NCBI RefSeq assembly: GCF_013122565.1 | Contig: NZ_CP053258.1 | DNA from: Escherichia coli | GTDB lineage: Bacteria > Pseudomonadota > Gammaproteobacteria > Enterobacterales > Enterobacteriaceae | Strand: one strand, 5' to 3' | DNA: 64,000 nt | Part shown: one piece after another, positions 17,264 to 17,918 of the stretch | Layout: each line of letters starts with the position of its first letter | Position numbering within the stretch: the first letter of the stretch is position 1 | Translations under genes and position numbers: made by a program | The notes under the pieces: model-generated | What the model saw: the letters and a program-made list of their open reading frames with translations, nothing else | Databases searched by the model: none | Told to the model about the DNA's origin: nothing

Positions 17264-17530
17264 ATGGACATTAACAACAAAGCCCGCATTCATTGGGCAT
17301 GCCGCCGTGGTATGCGCGAACTCGATATTTCAATCATGCCGTTTTTCGAACATGAGTATGACAGCTTAAGCGATGACGAAAAACGCATCTTTATTCGTCT
17401 GCTGGAATGTGACGATCCAGACCTGTTTAACTGGCTGATGAATCACGGTAAACCGGCCGATGCAGAACTGGAAATGATGGTCCGACTCATCCAGACACGG
17501 AACCGGGAACGTGGTCCTGTGGCAATCTGA
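17264..17530 (+). CDS. sdhE: FAD assembly factor SdhE (CptB antitoxin)
   Basis: 88 aa with RGxxE motif ([11 protein letters not shown]). Confidence 0.9.
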
Positions 17531-17918
17531 TTTGCGCGTCTCCTGGCGCGCACAGTGGCTTTCCTTGCTGATTCATGGGCTGTTTGCCGCTGTAATTTTA
17601 CTCATGCCCTGGCCGCTCAGTTACACTCCGTTATGGATGGTGTTACTTTCGCTGGTGGTGTTTGATTGCGTTCGCAGCCAGCGGCGTATTAATGCTCGCC
17701 AGGGGGAAATTCGCCTGTTGATGGACGGGCGTTTGCGTTGGCAAGGGCAGGAGTGGAGCATCGTCAAAGCGCCGTGGATGATTAAGAGCGGCATGATGCT
17801 GCGTTTACTTTCTGATAGCGGTAAACGGCAACATTTATGGCTGGCAGCCGACAGCATGGACGAAGCCGAATGGCGGGATTTACGGCGGATTTTGTTGCAA
17901 CAAGAGACGCAAAGATAA
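17511..17918 (+). CDS. ygfX: inner membrane protein YgfX (CptA toxin)
   Basis: 135 aa, two N-terminal hydrophobic helices; 20 nt overlap with sdhE. Confidence 0.85.

Follow-up and report, generated by a model that had tools for sequence, protein, structure and literature searches.

Comparative support for a housekeeping reading of the overlapping sdhE-ygfX gene pair of Escherichia coli

We propose that sdhE and ygfX form a core housekeeping operon in which a FAD assembly factor and its membrane partner are made by coupled translation and in which the toxicity of the ygfX product, also called CptA, is an effect of overexpression; we put the probability of this reading at about 0.65. The pair was analyzed within a 64,000-nucleotide stretch of E. 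coli DNA (contig NZ_CP053258.1), which we refer to as the window. SdhE is a five-helix FAD assembly factor that, as experiments on the identical protein have shown, binds SdhA and FrdA through its RGxxE surface and promotes covalent FAD attachment. YgfX, a low-abundance inner-membrane protein, most likely assists or modulates SdhE and the maturation of complex-II-type flavoproteins as a membrane-anchored partner. We infer this role of YgfX from the conserved linkage of the two genes and from the YgfX-SdhE interaction reported in Serratia. Since the GTG start of ygfX lies inside sdhE and has no well-placed Shine-Dalgarno sequence, ygfX would most likely be translated by ribosomes leaving sdhE, either through termination-reinitiation or through unfolding of the start region. 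Such coupling would make the amount of YgfX follow that of SdhE while holding it at a lower level, and the growth arrest and lemon-shaped cells ascribed to CptA would then reflect the overexpression of a membrane protein rather than a native toxin-antitoxin function.

The sdhE gene (also ygfY or cptB) occupies positions 17264..17530 of the plus strand, begins with ATG, and encodes an FAD assembly factor of 88 residues. It is followed on the same strand by ygfX (cptA; 17511..17918), which begins with GTG and encodes an inner-membrane protein of 135 residues. These identities and lengths, put forward in an earlier sequence-only reading, agree with the open reading frame list, Pfam, NCBIfam, and RefSeq. 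According to the open reading frame list, ygfX is read in the +1 frame relative to sdhE. Its GTG at 17511 is situated 17 nt upstream of the sdhE stop codon (TGA, 17528-17530), producing a same-strand overlap in which the downstream start lies inside the upstream reading frame. The resulting dual-coding stretch, GTGGTCCTGTGGCAATCTGA (17511..17530, plus strand), is read as (R)GPVAI-stop at the C-terminus of SdhE and as MVLWQSD at the N-terminus of YgfX. Its length of 20 nt had also been given by the sequence-only reading, and both the open reading frame list and the RefSeq annotation of K-12 return the same value. RefSeq places the two genes in identical geometry in strain PapRG-04-4 and in K-12 MG1655 (b2897/b2896), and the K-12 locus shares the gene order, the neighbors (ygfZ, fldB, xerD, and dsbC), the protein lengths, the GTG start, and the 20-nt overlap. 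Compared with K-12 YgfX, YgfX in the window carries three substitutions (F25 for V, L100 for R, and S103 for G). Over 12 kb, none of 5,426 complete E. coli genomes is more than 98.8% identical to the window, which therefore comes from a divergent Escherichia lineage.

SdhE matches the Pfam family PF03937 (Sdh5) with an E-value of 5.1e-26 over profile positions 1-75 of 76 and scores 198.4 bits against the NCBIfam equivalog NF008130, for which the cut-off is 120. All 88 of its 88 residues are identical to K-12 SdhE, and the protein is also identical to the SdhE of PDB entries 1X6I, 6C12 (SdhA-SdhE), and 6B58 (FrdA-SdhE). An AlphaFold model in which SdhE is linker-fused to YgfX predicts five helices in SdhE. 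The RGxxE motif noted in the sequence-only reading was recovered by a regular-expression match as RGMRE at residues 15-19 (R15 G16 M17 R18 E19; codons 17306..17320, plus strand), and all but one of the 80 Enterobacteriaceae species loci (79) encode it, the single exception (L061) having a 1-nt deletion in a T-run. Residue G16 contacts His44 of FrdA, the FAD ligand (PMC5773532), and published work on the E. coli protein, identical in sequence, shows that it promotes covalent attachment of FAD to the flavoproteins of complex II (PMC5773532, PMC9557727, PMC5293155). The dN/dS ratio of sdhE is 0.027. The mitochondrial SDHAF2/Sdh5 proteins resemble SdhE in belonging to PF03937, in carrying the RGxxE motif, and in their role in covalent flavinylation, but these eukaryotic proteins have N- and C-terminal extensions (PMC9557727), and a YgfX-like partner is undescribed for them.

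The overlap holds only if GTG 17511 is the true start of ygfX. In principle it could be an annotation artefact, with YgfX starting at TTG 17532 or at Met32 and the two genes simply abutting; a GTG start with a poor Shine-Dalgarno sequence would fit such a reading, as would the disagreement over the start among annotated homologues (97/114/136 aa in Providencia, 118/127/138 aa in Duffyella, and 113-140 aa in Edwardsiella). We consider this highly improbable. GTG 17511 is the earliest possible start in the ygfX reading frame, and all 80 of the 80 loci have it. By contrast, codon 8, which is TTG in the window and represents the next in-frame start, is unconserved and freely variable (entropy 1.08/1.57). 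Furthermore, YgfX residues 2-8 are conserved at the protein level across Enterobacterales, align from position 1 of the Pfam profile, and make up a beta-strand of the soluble domain that AlphaFold predicts with confidence. Were Met32 the start, the first transmembrane helix would be lost.

Judged from the aligned loci, conservation of the sdhE/ygfX overlap is far beyond chance. All 80 of the 80 Enterobacteriaceae species loci share the 20-nt length, the GTG start, and the TGA stop, and the same geometry extends to Edwardsiella, Providencia, Erwinia, Plesiomonas, and two further Enterobacterales. These loci answer in the affirmative the question, raised with the sequence-only reading, of whether the overlap is conserved across the order. 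Genera separated by a dS of ~1.5-1.8 retain both the start and the stop position, and their 20-nt sequences are nearly identical. Where the ygfX start has shifted, the genes still overlap, by 29 nt in Leminorella, 26 nt in Pantoea, and 14 nt at one further locus (L090). In other lineages the overlaps span 14-50 nt, and overlapping pairs are found in Piscirickettsia, Legionella, Xanthomonas, and Catenovulum. Short gaps take the place of the overlap in Aeromonas, Acinetobacter, and Halomonas, and a Shewanella study gives a 37-bp gap between ygfY and ygfX (PMC8621075). The sdhE and ygfX genes of Proteus mirabilis are set apart by an insert of 307 nt that contains a terminator hairpin, and ygfX there is equipped with its own AGGAG. 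Overall, ygfX is situated directly downstream of sdhE on the same strand in 80 Enterobacteriaceae and 15 further gammaproteobacterial loci. Three Rhodocyclales carry a ygfX homologue without an adjacent sdhE, and when the Accumulibacter YgfX homologue was used as a query for other orders, matches were obtained in Rhodocyclales only.

Synonymous sites are frozen across the overlap and the 15 nt upstream of it. Specifically, third-codon-position entropy falls to 0.27 at sdhE codons 78-82, compared with 1.14 at codons 1-77 (permutation P < 1e-5), and within the overlap the values are 0.11 (sdhE frame) and 0.016 (ygfX frame). Directly upstream of the ygfX GTG and inside sdhE lies a nucleotide-conserved stretch, ACACGGAAyCGGGAAC (17495..17510, plus strand), which is probably the ygfX translation-initiation region. 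Matches of this stretch to the anti-Shine-Dalgarno sequence extend to 4 bp at most, and the best one, only 2 nt from the GTG, is mis-spaced in E. coli; in Edwardsiella, Providencia, Plesiomonas, and Pantoea the corresponding pairing energy is ~0 kcal/mol. We therefore judge ygfX to lack an adequate ribosome-binding site of its own, a canonical AGGAG occurring only in Proteus, where the genes are separated. The sequence-only reading had stated that the overlap implies translational coupling. The invariant geometry, the frozen sites, the weak Shine-Dalgarno matches, and the Proteus AGGAG lend comparative support to coupling, which we regard as probable rather than as implied.

Alternatively, the overlap could be a historical accident of no regulatory meaning that has been locked in place because two frames constrain the same 20 nt. 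There are two routes to such an accident: the sdhE stop may have drifted into ygfX, or the ygfX start may have been recruited inside sdhE. Dual coding would by itself be enough to hold these 20 nt fixed, and the gaps in Aeromonas, Acinetobacter, Halomonas, and Shewanella show that the junction is not universal. Proteus keeps ygfX despite its spacer, as though the overlap were dispensable, and the SdhE chain deposited in the FrdA complex 6B58 comprises residues 6-84 only, suggesting that the overlapped C-terminal tail is unneeded for SdhE function. We nevertheless regard an accident as unlikely. Synonymous suppression continues for 15 nt past the dual-coding stretch, which points to selection on the initiation region itself; the overlap has survived moves of the start codon (to 14, 26, and 29 nt) and is found in orders as distant as those of Piscirickettsia, Legionella, Xanthomonas, and Catenovulum; and the canonical AGGAG of the separated Proteus gene fits a dependence of ygfX on upstream ribosomes elsewhere. 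Because its genes are separated and its ygfX has its own Shine-Dalgarno sequence, the Proteus locus is also a convenient comparator for coupling.

As for the route of coupling, a conserved RNA hairpin that would hide the ygfX start was rejected. Single-sequence folding of the junction gave a z-score of -0.78, and the consensus structure of 12 genera reached -2.95 kcal/mol with one compensatory pair. Because a conserved occluding hairpin is absent, coupling of the unfolding type is unsupported, and reinitiation alone remains. The GGA motifs within the frozen 15 nt could constitute an independent, if poor, ribosome-binding site, or they could form a site for CsrA; that CsrA might bind the two GGA motifs ahead of the GTG is speculation on our part, prompted by RsmA repression of the operon in Serratia. 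We also evaluated a programmed +1 frameshift that would yield an SdhE-YgfX fusion and rejected it. A prfB-like shift site is absent. Two-domain SdhE/YgfX proteins of 166-217 aa do occur in metagenome assemblies, in clusters of 1-2 sequences; their frame changes at differing positions, suggesting sporadic indels or assembly errors.

The pair is flanked by candidate control elements. Upstream of sdhE, a conserved intergenic block, AAAAACACGTTACAATAG (17212..17231, plus strand), contains a -10-like TACAAT at 17223-17228 and hardly varies across 10 aligned Enterobacteriaceae genera; with low confidence, we regard it as a candidate sdhE-ygfX promoter. A simple sigma-70 scan did not call this block because a good -35 element is absent. 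A Shine-Dalgarno-like AGGAAG, read from the sequence upstream of the sdhE ATG (17255..17260, plus strand), pairs with the anti-Shine-Dalgarno sequence at -4.3 kcal/mol with normal spacing, and GGAA or GGAAG is conserved at this site in the alignment. At the distal end, ygfX and fldB converge on a 39-nt gap that holds a GC-rich hairpin (17922..17951, no strand assigned) with a folding energy of -22.5 kcal/mol and a z-score of -2.88. A T-run is present on the fldB (minus) side only, and the hairpin is probably a terminator shared by ygfX and fldB, although a terminator scan of the plus strand did not call it. An Rfam search of positions 16900-18600 gave zero matches up to E = 1.

YgfX matches the Pfam family Cpta_toxin (PF07254, formerly DUF1434) with an E-value of 5.4e-48 over profile positions 1-132 of 133, and all 40 aligned YgfX homologues match the same profile. 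The AlphaFold model consists of a beta-strand (residues 2-8), two transmembrane helices (12-31 and 36-62), six further beta-strands (65-112), and a C-terminal helix (118-134). The transmembrane hairpin region is encoded at 17544..17696 (plus strand), with TM1 at 17544-17603 and TM2 at 17616-17696 on either side of a PWPLSY loop. The Kyte-Doolittle profile peaks at residues 22-29 and 45, and together with the modeled helices it favors the two-helix membrane protein described in the sequence-only reading. Basic residues N-terminal of the hairpin and an RSQRR sequence after TM2 predict, by the positive-inside rule, that both termini are cytoplasmic. YgfX is thus predicted to combine two transmembrane helices with a cytoplasmic PH-like domain: the modeled seven-stranded beta-sandwich, capped by the C-terminal helix, resembles known PH domains with moderate scores, and the hairpin is predicted to be inserted between strands 1 and 2 of the sandwich. 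Bacterial PH families of Pfam gave zero profile matches to the 40 homologues up to E = 10, and a Foldseek search of the model against the PDB returned none that was significant, EROS (8kei_D) being a weak match at E = 0.39. The bacterial PH families (Xu et al. 2010) and EROS/CYBC1 likewise pair a transmembrane hairpin with a helix-capped PH-like beta-sandwich, but this is a likeness of fold only, and in YgfX the hairpin follows strand 1. The ygfX gene is intact in 80 of 80 species with a dN/dS of 0.070. The linker-fused SdhE-YgfX model, built with a paired alignment and lacking an inter-domain error map, has a pTM of 0.46 and therefore offers no confident prediction of an SdhE-YgfX interface. 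YgfX is listed in a published YibN pull-down.

We tentatively raise a more specific possibility, which we would not favor at present: YgfX may not be a toxin at all but a PH-like membrane adaptor for the SdhA family of flavoproteins (SdhA, FrdA, and perhaps NadB). Such an adaptor would dock SdhE, or an SdhE-flavoprotein intermediate, at the inner membrane, much as EROS chaperones the NOX2 flavocytochrome; the overlap would set a fixed, low YgfX:SdhE ratio, and the cell-shape defects seen on overexpression would be secondary to perturbation of the membrane or of respiration.

The description of the pair as a CptB/CptA toxin-antitoxin system whose dual role is disputed, as the sequence-only reading had it, is accurate, with positive reports from E. 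coli and Acinetobacter and negative ones from Serratia and Shewanella. Two later papers (PMC8621075 and PMC3985639) credit Masuda 2012 with describing YgfX/YgfY as a type IV toxin-antitoxin pair named CptA/CptB. A genuine type IV module would consist of a membrane-bound YgfX that blocks FtsZ and MreB polymerization, an SdhE that counteracts it, and an overlap that keeps the antitoxin in excess. The Pfam family bears the name Cpta_toxin, and the arrangement of a small first gene overlapping a weakly translated second one resembles that of toxin-antitoxin operons. As later papers cite Masuda 2012, overexpression of E. coli YgfX causes toxicity and lemon-shaped cells with partial rescue by the upstream protein. 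Toxicity in E. coli is also reported for the homologue from Acinetobacter baumannii, which high-level pre-induction of CptB neutralizes (PMC8132199). We nevertheless consider a genuine module distinctly improbable, both on published phenotypes and on the genomic behavior of the pair.

In Serratia, a toxin-antitoxin phenotype was not found and YgfX and SdhE interact, contrary to the definition of a type IV system (PMC3985639); in Shewanella, the phenotype was likewise not found and the YgfX/YgfY two-hybrid interaction was negative (PMC8621075). Deletion of ygfY in E. coli is viable with an SDH-specific phenotype, in work whose measurements did not include ygfX expression in the mutant (PMC5293155), and the established function of SdhE is structurally proven and unrelated to toxin neutralization. 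The sdhEygfX genes of Serratia sp. ATCC 39006 (McNeil and Fineran) are co-transcribed, with SdhE flavinylating both SDH and FRD. The Serratia phenotypes, prodigiosin production and regulation by RsmA/FlhDC, are specific to that host, and a Serratia ygfX mutant showed no motility phenotype.

The genomic behavior of the pair likewise argues for a housekeeping role. Of 5426 complete E. coli genomes, 5425 carry the locus (median, one copy), the prevalence of CptA_toxin is reported as at least 80% in every sequence type studied (PMC10790755), and K-12, Edwardsiella, and Providencia share the order ygfZ | sdhE-ygfX | fldB-xerD-dsbC-recJ. The pair is core and single-copy, lies in conserved housekeeping synteny, and has both genes under strong purifying selection. 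Matches were found in 12 of 72,556 plasmid records, 10 of the 12 being 0.69-5.4 Mb in size, and in two phage records. Inspection covered one 51-kb record, a chromosomal fragment that also carries prfB and lysS, but neither the second Enterobacter record nor the Lelliottia record of 157 kb. These matches are mostly mislabeled chromosomes or chromosomal fragments, a genuine plasmid or phage copy was not found, and PADLOC returned zero matches for sdhE-ygfX. In Xanthomonas, the gene order is sdhA-sdhB-sdhE-ygfX-like, placing the pair inside the sdh operon, and nadB adjoins ygfX in Plesiomonas, Catenovulum, Piscirickettsia, and the three Rhodocyclales.

These observations can be set against the defining type IV system, CbtA/CbeA (YeeV/YeeU). 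Together with its paralogues, CbtA/CbeA resides in cryptic prophages and is multi-copy and strain-variable, and CbtA is soluble. The CbtA toxin, like CptA, is reported to inhibit FtsZ and MreB, and the antitoxin of either system is said not to bind its toxin. In contrast, sdhE-ygfX is single-copy and core, its proposed toxin is a membrane protein, and its "antitoxin" has an independent function that is essential for SDH. Type IV modules are expected to be accessory, mobile, multi-copy, or patchy, and sdhE-ygfX is none of these. Nor does the pair behave as though the antitoxin gene were never lost while the toxin is kept, given the viable ygfY deletion and the solitary ygfX homologues of Rhodocyclales. 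We therefore argue that the toxin-antitoxin label fits the genomic behavior of the pair poorly and retain the housekeeping reading as the main one.

The sdhE-ygfX locus is already known and nothing about it is new; because it is known at textbook level, little is at stake. In a debate of limited reach, the comparisons made here modestly strengthen one position, that of a core respiratory-assembly operon across Gammaproteobacteria, and the sdh-operon setting in Xanthomonas and the nadB setting in several orders are unlike those of a selfish toxin-antitoxin module. The membrane-adaptor role, if true, would provide a function for a conserved protein and would remove a mislabeled "type IV TA system" from databases.

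The ORF list for 15500-20000 places sdhE at 17264-17530 on the + strand (ATG start, 88 aa) and ygfX at 17511-17918 on the same strand (GTG start, 135 aa); the two share 17511-17530, 20 nt, with ygfX in frame +1 relative to sdhE. The 88-aa protein matches the Pfam family Sdh5 (E 5e-26), scores 198 bits with the NCBIfam SdhE equivalog, whose cut-off is 120, carries RGMRE as its RGxxE motif at residues 15-19, and is identical to K-12 SdhE (88/88), while the 135-aa protein matches the Pfam family Cpta_toxin (E 5e-48) and is distinct from K-12 YgfX at three residues (F25, L100, S103). 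RefSeq coding sequences in PapRG-04-4 and K-12 MG1655 (b2897/b2896) show an identical 20-nt overlap. Of 5426 complete E. coli genomes, 5425 match a 1.1-kb query of the locus, and their annotations call the genes sdhE and ygfX. The sequence-only reading, which described an 88-aa RGxxE-containing SdhE overlapped over 20 nt by a 135-aa ygfX, is borne out in all its details. Around the pair lie trhA, ygfZ (divergent), fldB (convergent), xerD, and dsbC; a 153-aa antisense ORF (17621-18082, - strand) that covers the greater part of ygfX and reaches into the beginning of the fldB region is probably spurious. Because the best identity over 12 kb (window 12000-24000) among the 5,426 genomes is 98.8% and the nearest YgfX is that of Escherichia sp. 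E1V33 (98%), the source is not a K-12-like strain but either a divergent lineage of E. coli or a cryptic clade of Escherichia.

The 20-nt overlap is real only if YgfX starts at GTG 17511, the earliest possible start in its ORF. Across 80 species-level Enterobacteriaceae loci from the genome collection, this codon is GTG in 80/80, the sdhE stop is TGA at an unchanged position, and the overlap is 20 nt in every one. The next in-frame start, TTG at codon 8, varies freely between species. A 40-sequence alignment (26-84% identity) shows residues 2-8 to be conserved; they line up with the opening positions of the Pfam profile, and AlphaFold2 predicts that they form a beta-strand within the folded domain. 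Given the invariant GTG, the variable codon 8, and the conserved, predicted strand, we conclude that the annotated start is correct. Public start calls for homologues are inconsistent (Providencia 97, 114, and 136 aa; Duffyella 116, 118, 127, and 138 aa; Edwardsiella 113-140 aa), and the annotated Catenovulum ATG would delete the conserved first strand; start calling is unreliable for this family because the true start sits within sdhE.

In the AlphaFold2 model of YgfX, a confident one built from the same alignment (mean pLDDT 91.4), a strand (2-8) precedes two helices (12-31 and 36-62); six further strands occupy 65-112, and a helix at 118-134 forms the C-terminus. The hydropathy profile and the placement of charged residues fit a transmembrane hairpin with both ends cytoplasmic, bearing out the earlier description of a two-helix membrane protein. 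Most likely, YgfX carries a cytoplasmic PH-like domain with the hairpin inserted after its first strand, an architecture that would explain why the overlap-encoded N-terminus is conserved. A linker-fused SdhE-YgfX model reached a pTM of 0.46, a value that speaks neither for nor against binding.

To assess the proposed translational coupling, we analyzed third-codon-position entropy in 79 intact Enterobacteriaceae sdhE sequences. The mean is 1.14 over codons 1-77, 0.27 over codons 78-82 directly upstream of the GTG (permutation P < 1e-5), and 0.11 within the overlap. Since the fall begins already at codons 78-82, nucleotide-level selection extends past the dual-coding stretch, as expected of an initiation region embedded in sdhE. 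Anti-Shine-Dalgarno pairing for ygfX is at most 4 bp, the better match stops 2 nt before the GTG, and pairing is essentially absent in Edwardsiella, Providencia, Plesiomonas, Pantoea, and the contig L090; folding revealed no conserved hairpin over the ygfX start. Proteus mirabilis provides a natural control in which the pair is uncoupled: a 307-nt AT-rich insert (L095 2777-3083, a chromosome filed as a plasmid) separates the genes. Directly behind sdhE it carries a T-run and a terminator-like hairpin, AGGAG stands ahead of ygfX (GTG start, Pfam E 1e-35), and the SdhE C-terminus differs (…RIRMAEIVNKY), whereas Providencia, also of the Morganellaceae, retains the overlap. Taken as a whole, these data lend indirect support to the coupling proposed by the sequence-only reading. 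They favor translation of ygfX through reinitiation by terminating ribosomes, a process established in bacteria over short distances, as in the scanning model of Adhin and van Duin.

Immediately upstream of the GTG, two GGA motifs (ACGGAAyCGGGAAC; 17498-17509, + strand) are conserved at the nucleotide level in Enterobacteriaceae and, because RsmA represses sdhEygfX in Serratia, could be a candidate CsrA/RsmA binding site. The ygfZ-sdhE intergenic region holds two blocks common to 10 genera, near the ygfZ start (17061-17090, TGGTAAAAGAG…TTGCAAG) and upstream of sdhE (17193-17231, ATATTCC…AAAAACACGTTACAATAG), which are probably the two divergent promoters or else sites for a regulator. On the sdhE side the block contains TACAAT, similar to a -10 element, and no good -35.

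The overlap is retained in all 80 Enterobacteriaceae and in other genera. The 20-nt/GTG geometry, with varying stop codons, recurs in Edwardsiella, Providencia, Erwinia, Plesiomonas, and two unlabelled Enterobacterales contigs; where the ancestral start is lost, an alternative upstream or nearby keeps an overlap (Leminorella 29 nt, Pantoea 26 nt, L090 14 nt). In loci of other orders, taken from chromosomes mislabelled as plasmids, the genes overlap by 20 nt in Piscirickettsia (as annotated), 14 nt in Catenovulum (if the GTG preserving strand 1 is the start), 35 nt in Legionella, and 50 nt in Xanthomonas, and are separated by 6 nt in Acinetobacter, 3-18 nt in Halomonas, and at least 25 nt in Aeromonas; 37 bp is reported for Shewanella (PMC8621075). 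No ygfX-like gene is present downstream of Paraburkholderia sdhE. Membership of the most distant downstream ORFs in the YgfX family is weak: Pfam scores run from 13 to 27 bits against a cut-off of 27.3, those of Halomonas and Acinetobacter gave no match, and for these ORFs the assignment relies chiefly on where the gene lies, its size and topology, and a C-terminal LWLxxDSM...WR motif.

Metagenome assemblies also contain double-domain products of 166-217 aa (Sdh5 plus Cpta_toxin; P0003, P0004, P0006-P0008, P0010, P0013, P0019), arising from indels at differing positions in or before the overlap. Because every one belongs to a cluster of no more than two sequences, sequencing or assembly errors are most likely, rather than a genuine fusion or programmed frameshifting. 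A 1-nt deletion in an sdhE T-run of Enterobacter sp. EA-1 (CP025776.1; L061 ~2754-3020), by which the first third of the protein is lost along with RGxxE, is probably a homopolymer error in that assembly.

Gene context links the pair to flavoprotein genes. In Xanthomonas sacchari (L100 1-3128) the order is sdhA, sdhB, sdhE, and a 150-aa YgfX-like ORF (sub-threshold Pfam match, 17.5 bits; overlap 50 nt), an order that makes the pair part of the succinate dehydrogenase cluster. In Plesiomonas, Catenovulum, and Piscirickettsia (L088, L097, L102; three orders), sdhE-ygfX is followed by convergent nadB, a paralogue of the SdhA/FrdA flavoprotein, and rpoE, with ygfZ divergent upstream of sdhE in the first and last. 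This block probably represents the ancestral layout in Gammaproteobacteria; Escherichia, by contrast, has lost the nadB-rpoE link and has fldB-xerD next instead. Three Rhodocyclales carry a solitary ygfX homologue with no sdhE beside it (Accumulibacter, L089 2501-2938; Azonexus, L091 3001-3435; Betaproteobacteria HGW-7, L092 3001-3453) in a conserved context, fabD-fabG-acpP-fabF, ygfX, then convergent nadB and rpoE-rseC-degP, its 3' end overlapping nadB by 26-41 nt.

Literature on a toxin-antitoxin role is split, as the sequence-only reading had noted in calling the dual role debated: an Acinetobacter homologue is toxic in E. coli (PMC8132199), whereas the Fineran group found in Serratia no toxin-antitoxin phenotype but a YgfX-SdhE interaction (PMC3985639), and the Shewanella pair failed toxin-antitoxin criteria (PMC8621075). 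Structural work on the identical protein has established that SdhE acts in covalent flavinylation (PMC5773532, PMC9557727). E. coli deleted for ygfY (sdhE) is viable; its SDH activity is low and it does not grow on succinate (PMC5293155). Genomic tests favor the housekeeping reading over a toxin-antitoxin module: nearly every E. coli genome has the pair, as a single copy, its synteny is fixed across Enterobacterales, dN/dS is 0.027 for sdhE and 0.070 for ygfX, ygfX is intact in 80/80 species, and PADLOC returned no match to the pair. The contexts described above, behind sdhA-sdhB in Xanthomonas, convergent with nadB in three genera, and solitary beside nadB-rpoE in Rhodocyclales, point the same way. 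Matches occur in only 12 of 72,556 plasmid records and two phage records. Most of these plasmid records are megabase-sized, and the 51-kb record inspected, E. hormaechei pCUVET19-891.4, is a chromosomal fragment with prfB, lysS, recJ, and xerD; several PLSDB plasmids with sdhE-ygfX (H15, H16, and others) appear to be chromosomes (0.69-5.4 Mb) or fragments thereof. Such records reflect wrong labels in the database and do not show that the pair is mobile.

The finding stands, with its location and its interpretation both right, at a locus already characterized. Our analysis adds three points: Enterobacterales conserve this overlap, and it reappears in further orders of Gammaproteobacteria; the data are compatible with translational coupling; and the behaviour of the pair is that of a core operon associated with complex II, so that the toxin-antitoxin label is weakened.
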